A DNA stretch of 64,000 nt from NCBI GenBank assembly GCA_964572735.1, contig CAZNHE010000002.1:7684-71683 (forward strand), written 5' to 3'. This DNA comes from an uncultured Chitinophagales bacterium (lineage in GTDB: Bacteria; Bacteroidota; Rhodothermia; Balneolales; DATFMH01). Positions 38 through 32,338 of this stretch are shown here, one piece after another. The notes beneath the pieces were generated by a model. It did no database searches. It saw only the letters and a list, made by a program, of their open reading frames with translations, and was not told where the DNA came from. How positions within the stretch are numbered: position 1 is the stretch's first letter; each line of letters opens with the position of its first letter. Position numbers and translations under genes: made by a program.

Positions 38-3000
38 GTGCATAACGATGGGCTCTACCAGTCGCAAATCAGTAAGGATCAGCGGTTGAAGGCCAGAGTG
101 GTAATGAACCATCCGCGCTTATATACGCAGGCCCAGAAGAAATGGGCAAAGGGAGTTTTGACAGGCAATACGGAGGCATTGGGTATCACCGGTGGCATAG
201 GTATGGTTCCGCAATTTGATAACGCTCTGGAAACACCCCAGGTTGATAGACAACGATCTAATATCGGTGACAGTGGACGTGAGTCCCGTCACATCCTCTT
301 CACCATGTACGGTTGGGACGATGAGGGCGGCGGTACGATCCTGCCGCGCCAGATTGCCAAAGAGCTGGTCCGCCGGGGAAACCGGGTGAGCGTGATTTAT
401 ACGCCATCTAAGAACCTGCCGGATAAGCCGGCGTATTATCTGGAGCAGTCCGAAGACGACGGGGTGCAGCTTTTTGCCGTTTACAACCGCCCTGCCCTGT
501 TTTACGATGTGAACCATCCGGAGCGCGAGATCAGTGATCCGAAGATGCGTGAACTGGTGGGCGGAATCATTGCAGAACTGAAGCCGGATATCATCCACTA
601 TCACAGTTTCCTGAATTTTTCGATGGGTGTGGCAAAGGATGTGCACGAAGCGGGCATTCCGAGTGTCTATACTTCCCATAATTATTGGCCGCTTTGTCCG
701 CGAATGTATTTGTTTGACGACAAACTGAATTTGTGCAGTGGTCCCTCTGCGGATGGTTCCAAATGCGCAGCATGTGTAAAAAATAATGATCAGAAGGATG
801 GTTATGCTGCGCGCGCCGAAGAAGGCCGCCGGATGCTCGGCGAATACGTCGACCGCCATCTGGCCGTGTCGAACCGGGTGAAGGAGCTGTTTGTTGCCAA
901 CGGACATCGGGAAGATCGCATTCATGTATTACAGCAGCAACCAGAAACGGCCGACAGGATCTGGCGGACCGTGGGGGTGAAACGAGAGATTGTGGAAGAC
1001 CTGAATCGTCCCCTGAGGATCGGTTTTATCGGCTCCCTGCTCCTGCAAAAGGGCGTTCATCTGCTGGTGCAGGCATTGCAGGCGTTTTCCAGGGAACGGT
1101 TGGAAGGTTTTGTATTCGGAGGCGGCCCCGAGCCCGTCGTTAAGTGGCTGAAGACGCTCGACAAGAAAAATCTTGTCACGTTCACAGGAAAATACGAACT
1201 GAACGAGCTTCCCGATCTCCTGAAGAAAATTGATGTCATGGTGGTTCCCTCCGTTTGGGAAGATTGTGCACCGCTGGTCGTGTCCGAGGGACTCGCTGCC
1301 CGGCTTCCTGTGATTGGCGCAAGGATGGGCGGCATCCCCGACTTCATAGAAGAGGGCACGACCGGCTTTCTTTTTTCTTATAATGATGTGCAGGAACTGG
1401 CTCAGAAAATCGGGGGGTTCATCTCTGATCGGAAACTGCTGGGCAGGATGCAGCGGAACATTCGATACACGCGCTCCTTCGGTGATTATATGGATGATCT
1501 GCTTCGTCATTATAATGAAGTGATGGACTCCAATGAAACGAGACGGAGTCCGCAGCAAGAAAAACGGGGGGTCATTATTGAGGGTTCTCAGTTCGTGAAC
1601 CACTCTTTGGCACGCGTAAATCGCGAAATCGGCAAGCAACTGATCCGGCGGGAATACAGCCTCTCGATCCTTCCATATGAGAAAGATACATGGATTCCCG
1701 AAAAAGGAACGGATGAATATGCCTTGTATGAACATTACCGTGCGCCTGTTCCCTCAGGCAATCATGTACACATTCGCCATCGCTGGCCACCCGATTTTAC
1801 TCCGCCGGCAAGCGGACACTGGGTGATCATCCAGCCCTGGGAGTTCGGCAGCCTGCCGGAAAAGTGGATACGGCCGATGTCGGATCTGGTGGATGAGGTT
1901 TGGGTTCCCAGCCATTATGTAAAGGAATGCTATGTGCGAAGCGGCGTGCCGGACGATCAGGTTCAGGTAGTTCCCAACGGGGTGGATACCGAAATGTTTA
2001 CCCCGAAAGCCAAACCTTATCCTCTTCATACAAAAAAGTCCTTCAAATTTTTATTTGTGGGAGGTACTATTGCCCGGAAGGGAATCGATGTGCTGCTCAA
2101 TGCCTATGCCCGCAATTTCACGGCAAAGGATGATGTCTGTCTGGTCATTAAAGACATGGGAGGGAGCTCCTTTTATCGCGGACAGACTGCCGCCGATACC
2201 ATTACCCGGCTCCAGACACACCCCGATGCTCCGGAAATCGAATACATTGATGAGGAATTGAGCGATGAGGAAATCGCCGGCTTGTATACTGCGTGCAACT
2301 GCCTGGTTCATCCATATCGCGGCGAGGGATTTGGGCTGCCTATAGCGGAAGCGATGGCGGCCGGCCTTCCGGTGATCGTCACCGGCTGCGGAGCCGCCCT
2401 TGATTTCTGTAATGATGATAATGCCTGGCTTATAAAGGCCCGGGAAATGAAGCTAAAAGAGAAAGCCATCGGATCCCTCAAGACCGTCGATCATCCCTGG
2501 TGGGCCGAACCGAATCCCGAATCGCTGGTGCAACTCATGAAATATGTGATACAGCATCCTGAAGAGGTTCAGAAAAAGGCGAAGAAAGCCCGGAAAACGA
2601 TTCTTACCCGTTTCACCTGGGATAATGTGGGAGATTGCGTGGCACGAAGAATAAATGAGCTTTCGGGAAAACCGATCAGGCGCCTGCAGCCGGCAATGAC
2701 GCCGAAGTGGACCAACAAGGAGTCCTTCATCCGCCATTTTATGCAACGTGTGCAGCGCCAGGAATGGAACCCGTTGATGGAGGAAACCGAAAAAGTCTGC
2801 CGTCAATACCCTGACGACACCTACCTGTGGGTGCTCCGGTCCATTGCCCTGCGGATGAATGCCTGTTTTGACGATGCTATAGAAGCCGTGCAACACTCAC
2901 TGAGGATCAATGAAACCCCCGAGGCACTGTACGAGACAATCCAGCTTGCCGGGGTAATGAATAAACCGGAACAGGCTCAGGCGGTTACCCATCGCCTGCA

Positions 3001-3061
3001 ATCGAATTATCCGGATTGGTGGCGGCAGATGGCGTCACAGGCAGAAGTTGAGCAACGTTGA
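38..3061 (+). CDS. Large tandem glycosyltransferase (two GT-B/GT4-like modules) with a helical TPR-like C-terminal tail. The frame is open to the window edge, so the true start may lie upstream.
   Basis: 1007-aa ORF. First module: HILFTMYGWDDEGGG...IIHYHSF. Second module: FLFVGGTIARKGIDVLL...HPYRGEGFGLPIAEAMAAGLPVIVTG (GT4 E-x7-E type signature). No in-frame stop between nt 2 and the GTG at 38. Confidence 0.8.
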   Translation: MHNDGLYQSQISKDQRLKARVVMNHPRLYTQAQKKWAKGVLTGNTEALGITGGIGMVPQFDNALETPQVDRQRSNIGDSGRESRHILFTMYGWDDEGGGTILPRQIAKELVRRGNRVSVIYTPSKNLPDKPAYYLEQSEDDGVQLFAVYNRPALFYDVNHPEREISDPKMRELVGGIIAELKPDIIHYHSFLNFSMGVAKDVHEAGIPSVYTSHNYWPLCPRMYLFDDKLNLCSGPSADGSKCAACVKNNDQKDGYAARAEEGRRMLGEYVDRHLAVSNRVKELFVANGHREDRIHVLQQQPETADRIWRTVGVKREIVEDLNRPLRIGFIGSLLLQKGVHLLVQALQAFSRERLEGFVFGGGPEPVVKWLKTLDKKNLVTFTGKYELNELPDLLKKIDVMVVPSVWEDCAPLVVSEGLAARLPVIGARMGGIPDFIEEGTTGFLFSYNDVQELAQKIGGFISDRKLLGRMQRNIRYTRSFGDYMDDLLRHYNEVMDSNETRRSPQQEKRGVIIEGSQFVNHSLARVNREIGKQLIRREYSLSILPYEKDTWIPEKGTDEYALYEHYRAPVPSGNHVHIRHRWPPDFTPPASGHWVIIQPWEFGSLPEKWIRPMSDLVDEVWVPSHYVKECYVRSGVPDDQVQVVPNGVDTEMFTPKAKPYPLHTKKSFKFLFVGGTIARKGIDVLLNAYARNFTAKDDVCLVIKDMGGSSFYRGQTAADTITRLQTHPDAPEIEYIDEELSDEEIAGLYTACNCLVHPYRGEGFGLPIAEAMAAGLPVIVTGCGAALDFCNDDNAWLIKAREMKLKEKAIGSLKTVDHPWWAEPNPESLVQLMKYVIQHPEEVQKKAKKARKTILTRFTWDNVGDCVARRINELSGKPIRRLQPAMTPKWTNKESFIRHFMQRVQRQEWNPLMEETEKVCRQYPDDTYLWVLRSIALRMNACFDDAIEAVQHSLRINETPEALYETIQLAGVMNKPEQAQAVTHRLQSNYPDWWRQMASQAEVEQR

Positions 3062-3211: not shown

Positions 3212-4501
3212 ATGCCGCGTACGGTTTCGCCAAAACTCAGTCTGGTTATTCCTGTCACGGAAAATCGCCGGGTATTCGTTTCACAATGCCTGGCCGACCT
3301 GAGCCGGCAGACTATTTCCTCTGAAATGGAAATCATCCTGACGGGAACAGGAGACTATCTCAATGAAGTTTCCGCAGATCGTTTTTCCGGTGTGGCGATC
3401 CGTAAAGTGGAAAGTGGGTCCGATTCCCTCTTCCGTCTTTGGAACGAAGGATTAAAAAAGGCGGCTTCTCCCTTCGTCTCCGTTATACACCCGGCGGACC
3501 GCTATCGTCCGGATGCTTTTGAGCAGATGACAGGCGAACTCGATCGTCATGAGGATATCCCGGCGGTTTATGCGGATGCACTGGTTACGGATGAGGAAAA
3601 TGAAACGTTTGAAGTTCATAGTGCACAGGGTGCGAAGCGGTTTCCCGATTATGACCGCGGGAGCCTTATAGAACGTGGTTTTACAGAACTCAGGCCGGTA
3701 TGGAGATCCTGCCTGCACCGGCAATGCGGTTATCTGGATGAAGGATTGACCGCTGTCGCCGATCTTGAATTCTGGCTGAGGATCAGTGGCCGGGACCGGT
3801 TCCGGCATATCCCCGAATTTTTGGCTCTTCGTTTTGAAAAGCCGGGTTATCAGAGGATGGTCCCCGAGAAAAAACGCCGTGAGGAATTCACCGCTGTTCT
3901 TCCGTTTTATGAGAATGACTATTCGGGAAAAGGCGAGGCTCTTTCCCAAATGATCCATAAATGCCGGAAGATGGAGCACCTGGCCGGAGGGGCCGGTTTT
4001 GGGAAACGGATAGATCAGGAAATTTCAAAAAATCCGTCGAACCAGGAGCTCTGGCTGCTCAAGGCGAGGCATTTGATGCAGGACGGAAACCGCAAAGAGG
4101 CGGAATCTTTCCTGAGGCAGGCCGTAGCAAGGTTTCCAAATGAACCCCGGTTTATCCTGCACCGGGCCATTCTTCTTTGGAAGACCGGGCATAAGCGCCA
4201 TGCGGTCGAAATGCTGGAAGAGGTCATCCGGAACAAACCTCTGGAGGCACAGGTTCATGCAACATTATCTGAAATGTACAGTGAAACCGGTCAGGCGGAT
4301 AGGGCCATACAGGAATACGTTTTTCTTATCAATCATTCGGGAGATCATCTTTCACTATATACATCATTAATTCGTCATCTGCTGGAACAGGGCGAGCTGG
4401 TCAGGGCACACTATTATTATCATATAGCCTGTCGGAAACATCCGGAAAACGCAGAATTGCAGAAAATCGCACATTTGTTTAGATGGCCCCAAATCGGCTG
4501 A
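3212..4501 (+). CDS. Family-2 glycosyltransferase fused to C-terminal TPR repeats
   Basis: 429-aa ORF. N-terminus LSLVIPVTENRRVF...LSRQT is typical of GT2 (GT-A fold). The C-terminal half has repeated A/Y/L-rich helical pairs (WLLKARHLMQDGNRKEAESFLRQAV...). Confidence 0.75.
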   Translation: MPRTVSPKLSLVIPVTENRRVFVSQCLADLSRQTISSEMEIILTGTGDYLNEVSADRFSGVAIRKVESGSDSLFRLWNEGLKKAASPFVSVIHPADRYRPDAFEQMTGELDRHEDIPAVYADALVTDEENETFEVHSAQGAKRFPDYDRGSLIERGFTELRPVWRSCLHRQCGYLDEGLTAVADLEFWLRISGRDRFRHIPEFLALRFEKPGYQRMVPEKKRREEFTAVLPFYENDYSGKGEALSQMIHKCRKMEHLAGGAGFGKRIDQEISKNPSNQELWLLKARHLMQDGNRKEAESFLRQAVARFPNEPRFILHRAILLWKTGHKRHAVEMLEEVIRNKPLEAQVHATLSEMYSETGQADRAIQEYVFLINHSGDHLSLYTSLIRHLLEQGELVRAHYYYHIACRKHPENAELQKIAHLFRWPQIG

Positions 4502-4557
4502 GAGAGGCGGGACAAGCCGTTTCGGGCGAGATGCCTTCTTTTTTCTGGGTGCAGATG

Positions 4558-4588
4558 TTTAAGCTGTAAAAACCAAATGACGATAAGT
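4558..4588 (+). promoter_or_regulatory. Sigma-28 (FliA/SigD)-type promoter of the flagellin gene
   Basis: TTTAAG-N17-CGATAAGT, i.e. TAAG-N15-GACGATAA versus the consensus TAAA-N15-GCCGATAA. It lies 64 nt upstream of the fliC ATG. The same architecture recurs at 5554-5584. Confidence 0.65.
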
Positions 4589-4600
4589 TGGCTATAGTCA

Positions 4601-4618
4601 AATCCCAAGGATGGGATT
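4601..4618 (+). promoter_or_regulatory. Putative CsrA binding hairpin in the flagellin 5-prime UTR
   Basis: Perfect 7-bp stem AATCCCA/TGGGATT with loop AGGA. A second GGA lies in the SD-like AAGGAG at 4640-4645. Confidence 0.55.
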
Positions 4619-4651
4619 CCGAAACAAATAACCAAAAAGAAGGAGCTAATT

Positions 4652-5479
4652 ATGTCATTCGGAGACTTTAACCGCATCAACACCAATGTACAGTCGATGC
4701 AGGCACAGTTGTCGCTGAACCGGATCAACAACCGGCTTTCAAATGTACAACTGAAGTTATCTACAGGTAAAAAGATTAACCACGCAGAAGATGACGCTGC
4801 CGGTTTCTCTATTGCTGCCAAACTTTCATCCCGGATTGCCGGTATGAACCAGGCCATGCAGAACATTGGGGATGCCAAATCGGTGCTCAACATCGCCGAA
4901 GGAAGCATAAACAACGTGCTGGATATCCTTAATACGATGAAAACCAAGGCGACCCAGGCCGCCAATGGCACATTAGGAAGCACCGAAATCGGGTATGTCA
5001 ACGATGAAATCAACGGTTTGGCTAAAGAAATTACCTCTATCGTTGATACAACCAAGTTCGAAGACACCAAGCTGCTGGACGGTAGCTATACTGCTACGTT
5101 CCAAACCGGTGAAGATAGCAGTGATACGCTGGCTGTGAGCCTGAGCGGTGTAAACACCTCGGACATCGGACTGGGCAGTATAAGCATAACGACAGCCTCG
5201 GATGCCAACACCTTCCTGGCTTCGATTGATGACGCTGTCAGCCAGGTTGCCGGTTATATGAAAGACATCGGGGTGTATCAGTCACGTCTGTCCATCCGCC
5301 AGGATGTGCTGGCTGAAAACATCAACAACAACAGCAGCGCGCTCAGCAGTGTTCAGGATACTGACTTTGCCAAGGCGCAAAGTGAATCTATTAAGCTGCA
5401 AATCCTGCAACAAACAGCTATTGCTGCTTTGTCTCAAGCCAACGCGGCTCCGCAGGCAGTACTCAAATTCATCGGATAA
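4652..5479 (+). CDS. fliC: Flagellin (short, D0/D1-only type)
   Basis: 275 aa. N-terminus RINTNVQSMQAQLSLNR...INHAEDDAAGFSIAAKL. C-terminus DTDFAKAQSESIKLQILQQTAIAALSQANAAPQAVLKFI. Confidence 0.95.
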   Translation: MSFGDFNRINTNVQSMQAQLSLNRINNRLSNVQLKLSTGKKINHAEDDAAGFSIAAKLSSRIAGMNQAMQNIGDAKSVLNIAEGSINNVLDILNTMKTKATQAANGTLGSTEIGYVNDEINGLAKEITSIVDTTKFEDTKLLDGSYTATFQTGEDSSDTLAVSLSGVNTSDIGLGSISITTASDANTFLASIDDAVSQVAGYMKDIGVYQSRLSIRQDVLAENINNNSSALSSVQDTDFAKAQSESIKLQILQQTAIAALSQANAAPQAVLKFIG

Positions 5480-5517: not shown

Positions 5518-5556
5518 GACAGGGAGTATCGGGAACGAAACTCCCTGTCATTTTTT
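5518..5556 (+). terminator. Rho-independent terminator after fliC
   Basis: 10-bp stem GACAGGGAGT/ACTCCCTGTC, 12-nt loop, then A plus TTTTTT. Confidence 0.8.
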
Positions 5557-5584
5557 AAGAAAATGACCGAAATGACCGATAAGT
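5554..5584 (+). promoter_or_regulatory. Sigma-28-type promoter for fliS-fliD-flaG-orf-flgM
   Basis: TTTAAG-N17-CGATAAGT (TAAG-N15-ACCGATAA). The -35 overlaps the T-tract of the fliC terminator. It ends 15 nt before the fliS ATG. Confidence 0.55.
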
Positions 5585-5598
5585 AGTTTTTCAAGCAC

Positions 5599-5904
5599 AT
5601 GAATAATGCCCTTAATACCTATCAGCGACAAGCCGTTCTGAACGCCTCTCCTGAAAAGCTCATTTCCATAATTTACGACGGAACCATAGCCGCCGCTTAC
5701 CGGAAAGACCAGGCCAGGCTTTTGGAGGGCCTCCAGATCCTCACTCTTTCGCTGAATTTCGAGTATGACGTGGCTAAAAACTTCTATAATCTGTATCAAT
5801 ATTGCCGCCACAGAGTTCAGGTAAACGAATTTGACGAAGTTCGGGAATTGTTAGATGATATCAGGACAGCATGGAATGAACATGTGGTGAAAAGCAAAGA
5901 ATAG
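5599..5904 (+). CDS. fliS: Flagellin-specific export chaperone FliS
   Basis: 101 aa. YQRQAVLNASPEKLISIIYDG... matches the FliS N-terminal pattern. Sits between fliC and fliD. Confidence 0.85.
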   Translation: MNNALNTYQRQAVLNASPEKLISIIYDGTIAAAYRKDQARLLEGLQILTLSLNFEYDVAKNFYNLYQYCRHRVQVNEFDEVRELLDDIRTAWNEHVVKSKE

Positions 5905-12524: not shown

Positions 12525-13106
12525 ATGAAGCGTGATAAAAAGAATACGACCAAAGATGTGAAAGACATGGACCGGAAACCGGGTCATCCGGAAAAGGATC
12601 CTGTCAGAACGGTTTCGTCAGGGAAATATCTGACCTTCGAAATCGACAGCGAAATTTACGGCTTGTACGTAATGAGCGTGCGTGAGATCATCGGTATGGT
12701 AGAGGTGACCCGCGTGCCCCGTACACCGGAGTTTGTGCGGGGGGTGGTCAACCTGCGTGGAAAGGTAATCCCTGTTATCGATTTGAAAAAGCGGTTCAAT
12801 GCAGGTGTTGTTGAGGAAACGGTGCGCACGCCGATCATCATTGTAGAAGCCAGATCGGGCGAGAAACTTACAGGGATGGGGTTGTTGGTGGATCATGTTT
12901 CGGATGTGATCAATGTAAACGAACAGAACCTGGAACCGCTGCCTTCTTTTGGCATTGAACTGGATACCTCTTTTATCGACGGGATCGTTCGCAATGGAGA
13001 AGATGTTATCACTCTGCTGAATATTGACCGTGTCCTCACCAGTACCGAGTTGATCGACATCCGTAAGATGAAAAAGCGACTCGCAGCCGCCGGGGAGGAT
13101 AAATGA
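12525..13106 (+). CDS. cheW: Chemotaxis coupling protein CheW
   Basis: CheW domain GKYLTFEIDSEIYGLYVMSVREIIGM...VVNLRGKVIPVIDL. I prefer the ATG at 12525 over the TTG at 12495. Confidence 0.9.
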   Translation: MKRDKKNTTKDVKDMDRKPGHPEKDPVRTVSSGKYLTFEIDSEIYGLYVMSVREIIGMVEVTRVPRTPEFVRGVVNLRGKVIPVIDLKKRFNAGVVEETVRTPIIIVEARSGEKLTGMGLLVDHVSDVINVNEQNLEPLPSFGIELDTSFIDGIVRNGEDVITLLNIDRVLTSTELIDIRKMKKRLAAAGEDK

Positions 13107-17868: not shown

Positions 17869-19092
17869 TTATTGAAGAATAATAGATTCTAATCTTTCGA
17901 TGAGCTGTTGATATCGGGCGATGAGGGCCTGAATCTGCGGAGTGGCAGGAACCTGTTCGAGTATTTGCAGGGCCCGGATGAAATGCTTTCTTGCCTGGTC
18001 GATTGATCCTGCATTGAATTCAGCCTGTCCCAATTCCGCCCACAACTGATAGGTGGAGGGTGCCATCGTCACGGCTTCTTGCAGCAGGGAGGCTGCCTCG
18101 GCAAACCGCCTTTCGCCGCTAAGGATGCCGGCTTCCCTCCTGCGAAGATCAACCTCCAGTTCGGAGATGTGGCTTTCGTTTTTTCTCCCGCCTGCCTGGC
18201 CTGTTTTTCGACGATACAGTTGGTAACATTTGGCCGCCTCGTGTAACTGCCCCTGCAATTCCAGCCTCCGGCCGTGATAGAAATAATAATCGGGCAGCAC
18301 CTCCGGCCGGGGAAGTATCCTGAAGTATTTCTTCAGGAGTGTGTCGTTTTTCCCGGAAAAAGCGTATTTGAAGCACAGATGGAGGATATGGCGGCGCATG
18401 GGGAAAGTCACGCCGTACCAGAGAGCCTGATCGGCGAACGCAATGGCCTTATCCGGTTCGCCCTCCATATAATAATGCTGGGCGAGGTAGGACAGCAGGA
18501 ACGGATTGTGGGGAGATTCCCGGAGTTTTTCTTGTAGGATGGCCAGGTTTCGCCGGCGTTTGCCTTTAATATCGGCCTGGTAATTATATCCCTTGTGCAA
18601 AATCCGGACCTTACCGGCCGATACCAGTGTTCTGTGAATATGCAGGGTCTCATGGATGGCCGATTCATAATGGACGTCCGGATGATTCCGGTAGAAACGG
18701 ATCAGCCGGTGGATTAGCGACACCTCCCCGCTTTCTTTGGTACTCAGATTGTGAATGTCGAGATAATAGCCGAACGCTTCCTCCCAGGGGTAGGTCTGGT
18801 AAAACCATGGAATATCGTTCCTGCAAATTTCTTCGTCGGCATCGAGTTGAAGGATCCATGGATTTTTTGCATGAGCCAGGGAGGCATTTCTGGCCTCGGC
18901 GAAATCGTTTTTCCAGGTGTGGTTATATACCGAAGCCTGAAACTCGCGCGCAATATCGATCGTCCGGTCTGACGAGCCGGTATCGACAATCACCATTTCA
19001 TCCACCCATTCCTGCACGCTTTTGAGGCAGGAGGCGAGATGGCGTTCCTCATTTTTGACGATCATGCATAACGAGACCGGCAGTTTATCCAT
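17869..19092 (-). CDS. Family-2 glycosyltransferase fused to C-terminal TPR repeats
   Basis: 407 aa. VSLCMIVKNEERHLASCLKSV...VIVDTGSSDRT...LQLDADEE (GT2 DxD region). TPR-like C-terminal half. Last gene of the flg/fliW/csrA operon. Confidence 0.8.
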   Translation of the reverse strand: MDKLPVSLCMIVKNEERHLASCLKSVQEWVDEMVIVDTGSSDRTIDIAREFQASVYNHTWKNDFAEARNASLAHAKNPWILQLDADEEICRNDIPWFYQTYPWEEAFGYYLDIHNLSTKESGEVSLIHRLIRFYRNHPDVHYESAIHETLHIHRTLVSAGKVRILHKGYNYQADIKGKRRRNLAILQEKLRESPHNPFLLSYLAQHYYMEGEPDKAIAFADQALWYGVTFPMRRHILHLCFKYAFSGKNDTLLKKYFRILPRPEVLPDYYFYHGRRLELQGQLHEAAKCYQLYRRKTGQAGGRKNESHISELEVDLRRREAGILSGERRFAEAASLLQEAVTMAPSTYQLWAELGQAEFNAGSIDQARKHFIRALQILEQVPATPQIQALIARYQQLIERLESIILQ

Positions 19093-19126: not shown

Positions 19127-19657
19127 TCAGGCGAAAATAGGATGGTCCGGATCTCTTTTCCGGGCTTCCTCAAAATAAGTCTCTGCCTTTTCCTCATGTC
19201 CCGCCCCTTTCATCAAATCTCCCATCATGATCCAATTTTCGACATCGTCAGGGTTGGTCGTGATGCGGTCTAACAAATATTGGGCGGCCTCATCATATTG
19301 TTCTCTCAGGATGTAGAGCAATACCTGGTTCCGGTGTGCCGCTTCCAGATCTTCCAGCTCGATGGCTTCACGGAGATCCTTTTCGGCGGATTCCAGATCG
19401 CCCTGATTCATTTTTGCAAAGGCTCTAAGATTAAACAACCTGGAGTCGTAGGGCGCATTTTCGATAGCCTGATCCAGTGCGATGATGCTTTTTTCCCATT
19501 CATATTGATACTGATACGCCATTGCGCTGATATGAAAGGGATCGGCAGCTTCCGGGTTTTCTTGTTGCAGCCGGGCGGCAAGCTGCAGACAGCGGTCGAA
19601 ATCCTCCTGTTCAAGGGCCTGGAGGCAGGCTTCAAGTTGTACGTCGTAAGAAGGCAT
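19127..19657 (-). CDS. TPR repeat protein
   Basis: 176 aa. Repeated 34-residue A/Y/L patterns (AMAYQYQYEWEKSIIALDQAIENAP...). The start lies 2 nt after the csrA stop. Confidence 0.7.
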   Translation of the reverse strand: MPSYDVQLEACLQALEQEDFDRCLQLAARLQQENPEAADPFHISAMAYQYQYEWEKSIIALDQAIENAPYDSRLFNLRAFAKMNQGDLESAEKDLREAIELEDLEAAHRNQVLLYILREQYDEAAQYLLDRITTNPDDVENWIMMGDLMKGAGHEEKAETYFEEARKRDPDHPIFA

Positions 19658-19658
19658 G

Positions 19659-19907
19659 TCAGGGTTCCTTTTGAGATTTTAGCTTTTTCAGGATTTCGGG
19701 AAGATTCACCGAATCCGGTTTGGTGGAGGCGAGAGAATCGCGGTTTTCAAATTTCACACGATCCATAATTTCATCACGGACAATCGAGACATCGCGCGGG
19801 GCATCGATCCCCAATTTGATTTGGTTCCGGTTGATTTCAACGACCGTGATTTTGATGTTGTCATTCAGGTAAATTCCTTCACCCTCTTTGCGGGAGAGAA
19901 CCAGCAT
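19659..19907 (-). CDS. csrA: Carbon storage regulator / translational repressor CsrA
   Basis: 82 aa. MLVLSRKEGEGIYLNDNIKITVVEINRNQIKLGIDAPRDVSIVRDEI is the canonical CsrA fold sequence. Confidence 0.95.
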   Translation of the reverse strand: MLVLSRKEGEGIYLNDNIKITVVEINRNQIKLGIDAPRDVSIVRDEIMDRVKFENRDSLASTKPDSVNLPEILKKLKSQKEP

Positions 19908-19916
19908 GGTTTTTCC

Positions 19917-20321
19917 TCATGTTGATTGCATGGTGACATAATCAAGAATATACTGTTCTCCCCTTTGTTCTTCTACATCCACGATAATCGGCGCCTTCAG
20001 GGAAAGGTGCGAAACGGAGGGATCCAGTTTCAGGATCACGTAAGCAGCCGTCTTTGGATGTTCATTCAGAATCTGCATGAGCTGAGGGTAGTAAACCTCG
20101 TGTGATTCCTCATCCAGGTCGTCGGAATCGATCAATGTTAAAGGAACTACCGGAAGATGATACGTTCCGCCCTGGCTTACCATCCACACAAGCGGCTGGT
20201 ATTCTTCGATACAAACAAAGGCGAAATAACGTTCACTGTCGAGACCAGGGATACCCTTTGGGAAGTGAATAATTTTTGAGTTCTCAATGCTCATCGGGCC
20301 GAATACCCGTGAGTTAATCAT
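19917..20321 (-). CDS. fliW: Flagellar assembly factor FliW (CsrA antagonist)
   Basis: INSRVFGPMSIENSKIIHFPKGIPGLDSERYFAFV matches the FliW N-terminal pattern. Adjacent to csrA. The start was chosen at an internal ATG; the ORF extends to 20390. Confidence 0.85.
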   Translation of the reverse strand: MINSRVFGPMSIENSKIIHFPKGIPGLDSERYFAFVCIEEYQPLVWMVSQGGTYHLPVVPLTLIDSDDLDEESHEVYYPQLMQILNEHPKTAAYVILKLDPSVSHLSLKAPIIVDVEEQRGEQYILDYVTMQST

Positions 20322-20373
20322 GGTTGAATCAGGCGTTTTCGACATAAGAACCGGCTCAGACATGCGATTATGA

Positions 20374-21267
20374 TTACATGTAGTTGGCAAGGTTGTTGTT
20401 CATGATCTGGGTGTGAACGGATAATGCAGCTGTATAAGCAGTTTGAAGGCTCTGGAACTGGCTGATCACAGAAGCGAAATCGGCATCGGTCAGATTACTG
20501 ACATTCGACTTCAGGTTGATGTTGCTGGTCTCGTACTGCTGATTGGTAAATTGCATCTGATTAATAGTATTACCAAGCGAGCTGCCCATATCGCTCACAT
20601 GAGATACGGCGTCGTCCACATTATCCATTTCGTCGTTAACCGCCTGGGTGTCGCCGCTGCGCAGATCCGCCTCAATACGATCGAACAGATCGAACAGCGT
20701 GTCACCGCTTTTGTAATCATTGATAGTGTTTCCGTTTTTGCTCACATTTACCGTAGTGCTGTCGCTGATACGGATGGTGAGATCTTCAGAATTTCCGCTG
20801 TAGTTCACGGTCCCGTCGGTAGCTATTGAGAAGGGAGGGTCTCCGGATTTTGTTCCTGCGAAAATATAACGACCCTGAATCTGTGTGTTGCCAAGTTCTA
20901 CGAAAGACTGCTTGAGCTGATCGATGTTGTCGGCCAGAGTGTTCAGCTCATCCTGAGAGAGCGTTCCGCCGTTTGCACCTTTGGTGACAATCGTTTTCAA
21001 TTGTGTGAGGTTATCCAGCATTTGGCTCACTGCCGTGCTCGCTGCGGTGGCCTGATTCAGTCCTGCATCGATATTCGCCTGATATTGTTCATTTTTACCG
21101 ATCTCGGCTTCGATATCCCGGCCGTCTGCAAAGGCGATAGGATCGTCGGAAGGTTTGTTTACCCGTTTTTCCGTAGCCAGCTGCTCCTCGAGCCTGGCCA
21201 TCTCCGAACGGTTCCGGTTTATATTTTGCAGGAAGTTGTTGATATAGCTTTGTTCTGTAATTCTCAT
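20374..21267 (-). CDS. flgL: Flagellar hook-filament junction protein FlgL (HAP3)
   Basis: MRITEQSYINNFLQNINRNRSEMARLEEQLATEKRVNKPSDDP. Flagellin-like termini. Follows flgK. Confidence 0.88.
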   Translation of the reverse strand: MRITEQSYINNFLQNINRNRSEMARLEEQLATEKRVNKPSDDPIAFADGRDIEAEIGKNEQYQANIDAGLNQATAASTAVSQMLDNLTQLKTIVTKGANGGTLSQDELNTLADNIDQLKQSFVELGNTQIQGRYIFAGTKSGDPPFSIATDGTVNYSGNSEDLTIRISDSTTVNVSKNGNTINDYKSGDTLFDLFDRIEADLRSGDTQAVNDEMDNVDDAVSHVSDMGSSLGNTINQMQFTNQQYETSNINLKSNVSNLTDADFASVISQFQSLQTAYTAALSVHTQIMNNNLANYM

Positions 21268-21277
21268 AGGCGGAGCA

Positions 21278-22636
21278 TCAGAGCATTGAGATAAGGGCGT
21301 CAAACATTTTCTGTGATATGGTTACCACACGTGCATTTGCCTGATAAGCATTTTGGTACTTAATCAGGTTGGTCAGTTCTTCATCCAGGTTCACCGCGGA
21401 GACACTTGCCTGTTGATTATCCAGCAGGTCCTTGGCGGAGTTGAGTGTTTCGATGCTGTTTGTCAGAGTGGTAATCGTAGTACCGGTTGAACTGGCGATA
21501 GAAGCGGCATTTTCCTGAAAGCTTTGTCCGTTCATGGTCCCATCGCTGCCCAGGTCGAACAATTGCAGAGCGATTTTATTATTGCCTACTTCTCCGGCTG
21601 CGTCAGACGCGGCAATGCCGTTTGGATTTCCCTCCAGAAGAGGGTTCAGAGAAATTGTCTTTGCCGTGGTATTGTTGGGGTCGAAGAAATCAACGCCTGT
21701 ATTGTCGTCGAGATTGTATCCGGTTTCATGAATGGCATTTACCTTTTCAACCAATGTTTTTGCCAAAGTATTCAATTGATCCTGATAGCCGGGGATGACC
21801 TTGTCATAAACATTGATATCGGCACCTATAGTACCGCCGGTTACATCGAGGGTCTTTCCATTATCCAGCCTCAGGCGTATCTGGCTGTTGTCGGTATCTT
21901 CTTCAGCCTGAATATGTCGTACCTGGTCGTTATGCAGTACCACCATCGAACCCATTCGTATCTCAAAGTCGCCGTTTTTATTCTGCAACACGCTAAAATC
22001 GACCAGTTTAGCCAGATCATTCAGTTTTTGAGTACGCAGGTCCATCGAATGATTATCGGGGTTGCCTGTGGTCTGGCCGGAGAGAATCGGCTGGTTGAGA
22101 TTTGCAATATCGTTGAGGATGCTGTTTACCTGTGTGAGATTCTGGCGGACGGAATCGGCCGTATCTTCTTTCAGGGATGTCAGCCCGGCGTCGAGTTCAT
22201 GGAAGCGGGTGGTCAGTGCCGAGGTCTGATTCAGCACGTCGTTGCGAAGCGTCTGATCTTCGGCACGGTTGGAGAGGTTGCCGAATGCATTAAAAAAATT
22301 GCCGAGCAACTGGTCCAGGTCCTGTCCTCCCTGCGTAGATAAATGCGTTTCTATTTGCTGATAGATTTTCTGCTGTTCCTGTTTTGATCCAATCTCACTT
22401 TGTTTATCCCGGATCTGGCTGTCGAGGTTGGTGTCATGCAGGCGCTGAATTTCCTGAATCGTTACTCCAAGTCCGATCGTCATACCATTATGACGGTAAC
22501 CCGGAGACGGGGTGGCATCCATGCGCTGGCGGCTGTAACCGGGAGTATCGGCATTTGCAATATTATTGCCGATGACGTCCATAGCCGTGCGGCTGGCCAG
22601 CAGTCCCCGTTTGGAAATTTCTAACAGCGGATCCAT
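21278..22636 (-). CDS. flgK: Flagellar hook-associated protein FlgK (HAP1)
   Basis: 452 aa. N-terminus GLLASRTAMDVIGNNIANADTPGYSRQ. C-terminus EELTNLIKYQNAYQANARVV. Confidence 0.93.
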   Translation of the reverse strand: MDPLLEISKRGLLASRTAMDVIGNNIANADTPGYSRQRMDATPSPGYRHNGMTIGLGVTIQEIQRLHDTNLDSQIRDKQSEIGSKQEQQKIYQQIETHLSTQGGQDLDQLLGNFFNAFGNLSNRAEDQTLRNDVLNQTSALTTRFHELDAGLTSLKEDTADSVRQNLTQVNSILNDIANLNQPILSGQTTGNPDNHSMDLRTQKLNDLAKLVDFSVLQNKNGDFEIRMGSMVVLHNDQVRHIQAEEDTDNSQIRLRLDNGKTLDVTGGTIGADINVYDKVIPGYQDQLNTLAKTLVEKVNAIHETGYNLDDNTGVDFFDPNNTTAKTISLNPLLEGNPNGIAASDAAGEVGNNKIALQLFDLGSDGTMNGQSFQENAASIASSTGTTITTLTNSIETLNSAKDLLDNQQASVSAVNLDEELTNLIKYQNAYQANARVVTISQKMFDALISML

Positions 22637-31069: not shown

Positions 31070-31942
31070 TTATCCTTTGTAAAGGGCTGAAATAATACGG
31101 TTTTTCCCGTTATAATCTTTATGGAGGGTGCTCTTCCAGATGGGCGGCTGGAAAAGTTCAAGAAGTTCATCGCCGAAATCTTCGTGAATTTCGAGGAACA
31201 GGAATCCTTCTTTCTTCAGGGATTGCTCTCCCATAGCTTTGAGCGCACGGTAAACCTTCATCAGGTCGCCGGTGAACAAAGCTATCTCCGGCTCGAAATC
31301 CCGAACTTCCGGCTCGACAGACAGCCGCTCCGAGTCAGGGATGTAGGGGGGATTCGATACGATCACATCCAGTTGCTGCGTAAGGTCTTCCTGAAAGGTC
31401 GCCCTCTCGAAGAAATCGCCTTTCAGAAAATGGACTTCAGTTCCGTTCAGATCGGCGTTCTTCCGGGCCAGTTCCAGAGCCGGTTCGGAGCAGTCGAGAG
31501 CATGAATATCCCAATCGGGGCGTTCTTTTTTCAGAGAGATGGCAATGCAGCCCGATCCGGTACCCACATCCAATAGAGTGAGTGGGGGGACCGGCGGCAT
31601 TTGTTCAAGAATGAGCTCTGCCAGCCGTTCTGTCTCCGGCCGCGGGATGAGCACGTGCGGAGTAACGTGCAGCCGGACATGCATAAAATCCGTGTAGCCG
31701 ATAATATACTGGAGTGGTTCATGCCTGGCGCGGCGCCTGACGTGCTTCCGCAATACGGCGAGCTCTGCTGAGGAAAGCGGCCGGTCGTACTGGAGATAGA
31801 GATTAAGCCGCTGCGTCTGTAAAACATCTGCAAGAAGCCATTCAATACTTAGCCGCGGGGAAGGGATCTTCTTTTTCCTGAACCAGGCCGTTCCCCAGTT
31901 GATCATAGAAAGGACGGTCCACTCTTTAGGAATTTCGGGCAT
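31070..31942 (-). CDS. prmC: Release factor glutamine N5-methyltransferase PrmC/HemK
   Basis: 290 aa. LLDVGTGSGCIAISL and VSNPPYIP motifs. Confidence 0.9.
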   Translation of the reverse strand: MPEIPKEWTVLSMINWGTAWFRKKKIPSPRLSIEWLLADVLQTQRLNLYLQYDRPLSSAELAVLRKHVRRRARHEPLQYIIGYTDFMHVRLHVTPHVLIPRPETERLAELILEQMPPVPPLTLLDVGTGSGCIAISLKKERPDWDIHALDCSEPALELARKNADLNGTEVHFLKGDFFERATFQEDLTQQLDVIVSNPPYIPDSERLSVEPEVRDFEPEIALFTGDLMKVYRALKAMGEQSLKKEGFLFLEIHEDFGDELLELFQPPIWKSTLHKDYNGKNRIISALYKG

Positions 31943-31951
31943 TATGGCGGA

Positions 31952-32338
31952 TTATTCGGCCTCCTGAGCCGAAGTGCCTTTGACCTCCTGAACCGTTAAC
32001 CCGTATCGTTTGGCATAATCCGTGACGAAATCGACAACCTGATCCATCAGAGGACGTTCATTGTCCAGCGAACTGCCGCGGAAGCCCATGCGCCCCCCGG
32101 TGGGAAGGATGTTGATCTTGAGACTTTTTTCTGAAAATTCGAAAACGGCCGTCATGGCTGTACTTGAATTGAGCTGTCTTTGATATTCTTCAAAAACAAA
32201 AACCATGAGGGCATCTTCGTTCTGTGAAGGATTGTACTGGTATGAATACTTTGGCTTGATTTCCTCCAGCAATGAGGGACCAAATCGCTTCAGGGTATCG
32301 GCAGGTCCAAATACTATGAACTTTCGTGCTGACTCCAT
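31952..32338 (-). CDS. Hypothetical protein
   Basis: 128-aa ORF 9 nt upstream of prmC on the same strand. No motif recognised. Confidence 0.5.
   Translation of the reverse strand: MESARKFIVFGPADTLKRFGPSLLEEIKPKYSYQYNPSQNEDALMVFVFEEYQRQLNSSTAMTAVFEFSEKSLKINILPTGGRMGFRGSSLDNERPLMDQVVDFVTDYAKRYGLTVQEVKGTSAQEAE

Follow-up and report, generated by a model that had tools for sequence, protein, structure and literature searches.

A putative two-site CsrA operator in the flagellin leader of a Balneolales bacterium

The control of flagellin synthesis by the FliW-CsrA-flagellin mechanism is already known; what is new in the present case is a probable instance from Balneolales. The element in question lies in the leader of a flagellin gene (fliC) within a 64,000-nucleotide (nt) stretch of DNA from an uncultured bacterium (GenBank assembly GCA_964572735.1, contig CAZNHE010000002.1), which is analysed here as a whole and is referred to as the window. 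This leader combines a GGA-loop hairpin with a second GGA embedded in a Shine-Dalgarno (SD)-like sequence next to the start codon, and the comparative evidence presented below makes it likely that CsrA represses fliC translation by bridging the two sites, that FliW antagonises CsrA, and that flagellin titrates FliW.

Among the described systems, hag of Bacillus subtilis (Yakhnin 2007; Mukherjee 2011, 2016), as recounted in PMC7652899, PMC13443453 and bioRxiv 10.1101/2020.07.02.184341, shares with this locus a late sigma-D/sigma-28 promoter, two leader GGAs of which one is in the loop of a 5' hairpin and the other over the SD sequence, the location of fliW-csrA directly 3' of flgK-flgL, a CsrA with a C-terminal extension and N55, and a FliW with Q124. 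In these accounts, the B. subtilis flagellin gene lies directly 3' of csrA, whereas fliC of the window is 14 kb away on the other strand; furthermore, FliW K123 and CsrA D41 of B. subtilis are replaced here by E and S/T, respectively, the lineage studied here otherwise lacks SD sequences, and its system is a predicted one. The 5' untranslated region of Campylobacter jejuni flaA (Dugar et al. 2016, PMC4894983) is similar in that a sigma-28 transcript with a short leader has motifs of the ANGGA/CANGGANG type, one set in an apical loop and the other at its ribosome-binding site, in a structure backed by compensatory changes across species; FliW is the CsrA antagonist, fliC is unlinked from csrA, and control differs between the paralogs (flaA strong, flaB weak). 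Each of the two flaA sites is in a stem-loop, at a distance of 21 nt from the other, whereas the second site of the present leaders, at a distance of 30-46 nt, is largely unstructured, and, unlike in C. jejuni, some of the paralogs have no site at all.

Two more distant parallels are relevant. The glgC leader of Escherichia coli (Mercante 2009, as summarised in PMC7652899) also has an upstream high-affinity GGA hairpin and a second, bridgeable GGA over the SD sequence, but according to that summary the target is metabolic, the antagonists are the small RNAs CsrB/C rather than FliW, and CsrA is short and devoid of the FliW-binding extension. The rpsU leader of Flavobacterium johnsoniae, with the only strong SD sequence of an SD-blind Bacteroidia genome (PMC9976891 and PMC13000453), resembles the fliC leader as an isolated, conserved SD-like element in an SD-avoiding genome that serves regulation, not routine initiation; the difference is that there the ribosome itself is the sensor (through its bS21 content), not CsrA, and that there is no upstream GGA hairpin. 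CsrA is reported to be scarce in Bacteroidota, and a functional survey of 555 homologs included none from this phylum (PMC13443453); in the literature searched, no paper linking Balneolales to CsrA was found.

Anatomy and conservation of the flagellin leader

The features of the leader and its gene are the following.

4558-4586, plus strand: sigma-28 (FliA)-type promoter, TTTAAG, N15, GACGATAA (sequence reading)
4601-4618, plus strand: predicted CsrA site 1, a 7-bp hairpin AATCCCA/TGGGATT with an AGGA loop (fold, covariation and motif)
4638-4647, plus strand: predicted CsrA site 2, AGAAGGAGCT (GGA at 4642-4644), overlapping the SD-like sequence (invariant in 11 leaders)
4652-5479, plus strand: flagellin gene (fliC/hag-like, 275 amino acids), the putative regulated target (Pfam Flagellin_N, 4.7e-34; Flagellin_C, 1.9e-15)

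In the promoter, TAAG (4560-4563), N15 and GACGATAA (4579-4586) fit the sigma-28 consensus TAAA-N15-GCCGATAA, and TTAAG-N15/16-CGATAA is found upstream of flagellin genes at 12 related loci (L001, L003, L014-L022 and L025). The window contains eight sigma-28-like motifs, against 1.5 expected, most of them in or near flagellar and chemotaxis genes, for example, before fliS and cheW; a scan for sigma-70 promoters gave no plausible promoter for fliC, and no fliA gene was identified within the window. By analogy with known sigma-28 promoters, transcription is predicted to start near 4593-4596, upstream of the hairpin. The 5' arm of the hairpin (AATCCCA, 4601-4607) begins 14 nt past the -10 element and pairs perfectly with the 3' arm (TGGGATT, 4612-4618) across the AGGA loop (4608-4611), with CANGGANG occupying 4606-4613. 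Site 2 includes AAGGAG (4640-4645), which is separated by the 6-nt spacer CTAATT from the ATG at 4652, the 3' end of AGAAGGAGCT being 4 nt upstream of the ATG; the two GGAs, at 4609 and 4642, are 33 nt apart. Direct reading thus bears out the promoter, the hairpin with its AGGA loop and the second GGA at the coordinates given in the original prediction, which was made from this sequence without database searches.

Folding of the leader, which had been proposed as a check, yields a minimum free energy (MFE) structure that contains the hairpin; the GGA-loop hairpin is present in both the MFE and the centroid folds of the window leader and nine other distinct leaders. Site 2 is essentially unpaired in the folds, with two weak pairs (4645-4646) in one MFE structure. 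When the two strands of the window are counted together (128 kb), two hairpins have at least seven perfect base pairs and a GGA in a 4-6 nt loop, compared to an expectation of 1.5; with only two such hairpins in 128 kb, the probability of one falling in a given 60-nt leader is about 7e-4. One of the two is on the sense strand of the fliC leader, and among the 68 open reading frames (ORFs) in the window, a GGA-loop hairpin together with a GGA close to the start codon is seen only for fliC. Taken alone, the significance of the window hairpin beyond chance is marginal, and it is the relatives that make the case.

For the comparison, upstream DNA was collected for 26 distinct flagellin genes on related contigs. 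Metagenome-assembled genomes of Balneolales supply the closest flagellins (77% identity), and Balneolaceae, Fodinibius and Rhodothermaceae the more distant ones. Balneolales are placed in Bacteroidota by GTDB; these best matches agree with the suggestion in the original prediction that the lineage is not a Firmicute one. Ten distinct leaders (11 with a near-duplicate), all from Balneolales or Balneolaceae contigs, carry an invariant AGAAGGAGCT located 4-7 nt upstream of the ATG, and all ten have a GGA-loop hairpin 30-46 nt further upstream; the 16 other flagellin leaders have neither. The stems differ as follows.

Window, L001, L008: AATCCCA/TGGGATT
L014: ATCCC/GGGAT
L015_4030, L016_5011: GATGCCTC/GAGGCRTC
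L015_4937: AGAGCTCCA/TGGAGCTCT
L016_5917: GGAGCTCCA/TGGAGCTC
L022_4929: GGAATCTCA/TGAGATTCC
L025_4001: TGCCTC/GGGGCA
L025_4914: AAGATCCC/GGGGTCTT

In an ungapped alignment anchored on the GGA, 86.7% of the cells pair, compared to 21-48% when the 3' partner is slid, seven of the nine pairs show changes on both sides, and the covariation score is not reached by any of 500 shuffles. RNAalifold, applied to a longer alignment of 11 sequences, independently recovers the same helix, with six pairs, none of them broken and five compensatory, and with the SD region unpaired. The only invariant hairpin columns of the ungapped alignment are C12, A13, G15, G16, A17 and G19, that is, CANGGANG, which is kept in 10 of the 10 leaders. 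Both compensatory changes in the stem and conservation of the hairpin and the GGA in orthologous leaders, on which the original prediction had been made to depend, are therefore present, the latter as a constant loop motif and an invariant 10-mer at the start codon. The apical hexaloop motif that CsrA/RsmE bind with high affinity, as cited for the flaA leader of C. jejuni (PMC4894983), is CANGGANG, which also fits the core of the consensus RUACARGGAUGU, with flanking C and G paired, obtained by SELEX (PMC7652899). A single CsrA dimer can bridge sites 10-63 nt apart (PMC7652899), a range that includes the GGA-GGA spacing of both the window (33 nt) and the relatives (30-46 nt).

The coupling of the two halves does not depend on selecting leaders by their hairpins: with GAAGGAGCT and an ATG 3-6 nt downstream as the sole criterion, exactly the hairpin-bearing set is recovered, each member with CANGGANG 30-46 nt upstream; in the background, CANGGANG occurs 0.27 times per kb per strand. 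The four copies of GAAGGAGCT elsewhere have no CANGGANG upstream. A covariance model of the element, searched against 229 kb, matches only flagellin leaders; two other flagellin leaders are among its next-best, sub-threshold matches (E = 0.6 and 2.3). An origin by chance, without any function, of both the hairpin and the SD-like hexamer near it would be in keeping with the roughly 1.5 such hairpins expected per window and a fold z score of only -1.8; given that 10 distinct leaders have the element, with compensatory changes among them and perfect co-occurrence of its halves, this explanation is effectively refuted.

The element is a property neither of the entire family nor of every paralog. 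The possibility that all Balneolaceae flagellin leaders carry it was rejected (L003, L017, L018, L019, L020 and L021 lack it), as was its presence in every paralog, given that the first paralogs of L015, L016, L022 and L025 are devoid of it. Three flagellin genes are arranged in tandem in each of these four Balneolaceae loci (L015, 3001-5782; L016, 4001-6762; L022, 4001-6650; L025, 2916-5768). In the contigs with two or three tandem flagellins, the first gene is preceded by a sigma-28 promoter of its own but lacks both hairpin and SD sequence, and one or two of the later genes carry the complete hairpin and AGAAGGAGCT, some of them in short intergenic spacers; a role of such hairpins as terminators of the preceding paralog was rejected because no U-tract follows. 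In the flagellin tree, the element-bearing genes group in two clades, with paralogs that lack the element scattered among them, implying losses of the element or gene conversion of the coding regions.

A different leader design is apparent upstream of the same gene in several relatives. The leaders of L019 (3930-4000; Fodinibius sediminis), L020 (3020-3095) and L003 (2940-3000), the latter two from other Balneolales, share CAAGAG 6 nt past the -10 element; a further feature common to L019 and L020 is a 5' hairpin with a loop that lacks GGA (AGCGTGA-AAC-TCATGCT in L019, where the AAC-loop hairpin is accompanied by AAAGGAGAA).

Shine-Dalgarno avoidance and the start-proximal site

The predicted energy of pairing to the anti-SD sequence was surveyed upstream of 68 greedy ORFs of the window. 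Its median is -1.8 kcal/mol, compared to -2.8 kcal/mol at random positions, and the upstream regions contain 34% A and 17% G, compared to 24% A and 26% G genome-wide. The window avoids SD sequences and shows the Bacteroidia-style pattern of SD-less initiation; Bacteroidia ribosomes are reported to be SD-blind except in special states (PMC9976891, PMC13000453). Pairing of -8 kcal/mol or stronger is reached only by fliC (-8.5) and by cheR at 13103 (-10.8), and still by only three ORFs if each may use the best among 40 alternative starts. The fliC sequence, for which no counterpart had been seen upstream of the other starts initially inspected, is thus a clear outlier, although not a unique one. 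The cheR site reads GGGGAGGATAA-ATG and overlaps the end of cheW.

Among the flagellin leaders, AAGGAG travels with the hairpin. Because the genome avoids SD sequences and the hairpin-less flagellin paralogs also lack them, AAGGAG is not generally needed for flagellin translation here. The locus amounts to a natural experiment: with an SD-like motif that persists in an SD-avoiding genome only beside the putative CsrA hairpin, the part played by GGA-rich SD regions as a 'repressor site' is set apart from the part they play as a 'ribosome site'.

These observations bear on the simplest non-regulatory account, namely, that the 5'-terminal hairpin merely shields an abundant mRNA against 5'-end-dependent decay and AAGGAG is merely the strong ribosome-binding site of a highly expressed gene, with no involvement of CsrA. 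Flagellin is indeed a very abundant protein, the hairpin lies about 0-8 nt from the predicted 5' end, the hairpins of L015_4030 and L025_4001 begin 2-5 nt past the -10 element, and the stems are stable, down to -20 kcal/mol. However, stabilisation would require the stem and not the loop sequence, whereas the loop positions C, A, G, G, A and G are invariant and it is the stem that drifts. Moreover, the hairpins of L015_4937, L016_5917, L022_4929 and L025_4914 are in intergenic spacers that follow another flagellin gene and are unlikely to be 5'-terminal because the 150-190 nt examined upstream contain no sigma-28-like promoter. Other paralogs in the same clusters manage with neither stem nor SD sequence, in a genome that avoids the latter, and the all-or-none coupling of the hairpin and AGAAGGAGCT is left unexplained. 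We therefore consider this account improbable as a complete explanation; the stabilising and operator functions could nevertheless coexist.

A more far-reaching interpretation, which we regard as tentative and rather doubtful, is that, in a lineage that translates its genes without SD pairing, AGAAGGAGCU is not a ribosome-binding site but a dedicated CsrA operator or special-ribosome signal that is kept only together with the CANGGANG hairpin. The relatives with tandem flagellins might then combine a CsrA-blind 'starter' flagellin with bulk flagellins gated by CsrA and FliW, in a two-tier programme of filament assembly.

CsrA, FliW and the proposed control of fliC

The window encodes both proteins within a string of flagellar genes headed by flgK and flgL.

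19659-19907, minus strand: csrA (82 amino acids; L4, R6, R44, N55 and a C-terminal extension; PF02599, 6e-24)
19917-20363, minus strand: fliW (about 148 amino acids; ORF open to 20390), directly upstream of csrA (PF02623, 1e-10)
20374-21303, minus strand: flgL (Pfam)
21278-22636, minus strand: flgK (Pfam); flgK-flgL head the fliW-csrA gene string

Pfam matches substantiate the order claimed in the original prediction, with csrA and fliW after flgK-flgL, as well as the uncoupling of fliC, which is about 14 kb away on the opposite strand; the start of fliW, by homology, is likely at 20363 rather than at 20321 as originally given. The string flgK-flgL-fliW-csrA, followed by a tetratricopeptide repeat (TPR) gene, is syntenic in L023 and L024, the two close relatives for which the flgL region was retrieved, and in L001/L024 a single contig carries both flgK-flgL-fliW-csrA and a fliC that has the hairpin. 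Identity between the window and the relatives is 87-88% for CsrA, 77% for flagellin and 66-71% for FlgL.

CsrA of the window (MLVLSRK...VSIVRDEI...KFEN55R) contains the RNA-binding residues L4 and R44, and also R6. Its best match in PDB is 5DMB_D, the FliW-bound CsrA of Geobacillus, over the full length (residues 2-81), including N55, which is required for FliW binding. The best match of FliW is 5DMB_A; the GIPG motif is kept, and G-E-Q at 122-124 corresponds to G-x-Q, with the equivalent of Q124, the FliW residue that contacts N55.

Under the proposed mechanism, fliC would be transcribed from its sigma-28 promoter into a monocistronic mRNA, the leader of which, about 58 nt long, would function as a two-site CsrA operator. 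Site 1 would be the 5'-proximal hairpin, in which a C-G pair closes the apical loop that exposes CAAGGAUG, and site 2 the largely single-stranded AGAAGGAGCU immediately 5' of the start codon. One CsrA dimer would dock on the hairpin and bridge the 33 nt to the second GGA, preventing 30S binding at the start codon and repressing flagellin synthesis; FliW, the product of the gene beside csrA that follows flgK-flgL, would bind CsrA through the N55 region, releasing the mRNA. Cytoplasmic flagellin is proposed to bind FliW, so that translation would keep pace with the export of flagellin, as it does in B. subtilis and C. jejuni.

The predictions that this mechanism makes at the sequence level, with respect to covariation, motif, spacing, synteny and the N55/Q124 pair, held, but several observations weigh against it. 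In particular, FliW has E at the position of K123, and position 41 of CsrA is occupied by S in the window and by T in L023 and L024 instead of D. The K123/D41 salt bridge, which is needed for allosteric inhibition in B. subtilis, is accordingly not conserved, although the N55/Q124 contact is kept. The window hairpin is thermodynamically modest (-8 kcal/mol; z = -1.8; 10 of 200 shuffles fold as well), and, conversely, several stems of the relatives extend over 9-12 bp, with energies as low as -20 kcal/mol. Most of the hairpins selected in SELEX had four or fewer contiguous pairs (PMC7652899), so very stable stems may be unfavourable for CsrA binding; such long stems may act as 5' stabilisers as well. 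The invariance of 10 nt in AGAAGGAGCU exceeds the needs of a GGA site, so another constraint may act on it. Finally, the relatives examined for csrA/fliW were L023 and L024, whereas L015, L016, L022 and L025 are the source of most of the covariation.

The excess invariance, together with the genome-wide avoidance of SD sequences and the reported SD-blindness of Bacteroidia ribosomes outside special states, could also indicate that the element is read by a factor other than CsrA, such as another RNA-binding protein, a small RNA complementary to GGA or, by comparison with Flavobacterium rpsU, an SD-using subpopulation of ribosomes, in which case AGAAGGAGCU would be a specialised translation signal. 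Such a factor would have to account for a hairpin loop that is the exact CsrA motif and for the conserved csrA-fliW pair, located in the flagellar cluster and bearing the hallmarks of the flagellin system; we know of no alternative factor of this kind for flagellin. We consider this alternative slightly less probable than simple 5' stabilisation, and repression of fliC by CsrA under FliW control accounts best for the data.

The locus is a concrete, testable target for a Bacteroidota-affiliated CsrA and favours the view in which the ancestral system had the FliW-CsrA-flagellin form. The gain is one of breadth and of a neat test case, not of a new principle, given that the mechanism is well known; the modest twist is that an SD-like site is tied to a CsrA-type hairpin in an SD-avoiding genome and that paralogs differ in having it.

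The csrA gene itself is preceded by a conserved ACATGAGGAAnnAACC-ATG (window, 19908-19923, minus strand; L023, 5343-5358; L024, 5340-5355). This sequence contains an SD-like GGA at -9 and overlaps the stop codon of fliW, despite the SD-avoiding character of the genome, and may be a site of CsrA autoregulation or of translational coupling.

Transcription units and neighbouring genes

Two terminator-like structures are located around fliC.

4524-4546, plus strand: terminator-like stem and T-run (GGGCGAGATGCCT and TCTTTTTTCT), 3' of the upstream TPR gene (terminator scan and sequence reading)
5518-5556, plus strand: terminator-like 10-bp stem GACAGGGAGT/ACTCCCTGTC and T-run, 3' of fliC (read from sequence)

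The second of these was missed by the terminator scan because its loop is 12 nt long. Because the two hairpins bracket fliC, the gene is monocistronic, forming its own transcription unit. It is followed by fliS, fliD, flaG, a sigma-54 activator gene and the che cluster, and the order on the minus strand is flgI ... flgN, flgK, flgL, fliW, csrA and then TPR and glycosyltransferase (GT) genes (Pfam in both cases). The fliS gene has a sigma-28-like promoter (TAAG, N16, CCGATAA at 5576-5582; region 5556-5601 of the window). The -35 element of this promoter adjoins the T-run in the terminator of fliC, and the promoter ends only 16 nt upstream of the ATG at 5599, implying a very short or nearly leaderless fliS mRNA.

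An ORF of 216 amino acids (4420-5070, minus strand) is antisense to the leader and start of fliC; it is presumably spurious because the overlapping flagellin gene is strongly supported by Pfam. An Rfam scan of the whole window produced no matches at or above the gathering threshold, and no 16S rRNA gene is present within the window. To our knowledge, Rfam has no curated family for a CsrA element of flagellin leaders.

Another 7-bp GGA-loop hairpin of the window (TTCGGCT-CAGGA-GGCCGAA; 31943-31975, minus strand) is 31 nt upstream of an ORF for a PrmC-like methyltransferase (31070-31942) that has no GGA at its start codon; this hairpin may have arisen by chance or may serve as a terminator for the preceding gene. 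Large GT and TPR genes are found beside both fliC (a GT4-GT4 fusion at 38-3061 and a TPR gene at 3212-4501) and csrA (a TPR gene at 19127-19657 and a GT2-TPR gene at 17869-19092, minus strand). The GT/TPR synteny is also seen in L014, L023 and L024, and these flanking genes may be flagellin glycosylation genes inside the flagellar cluster.

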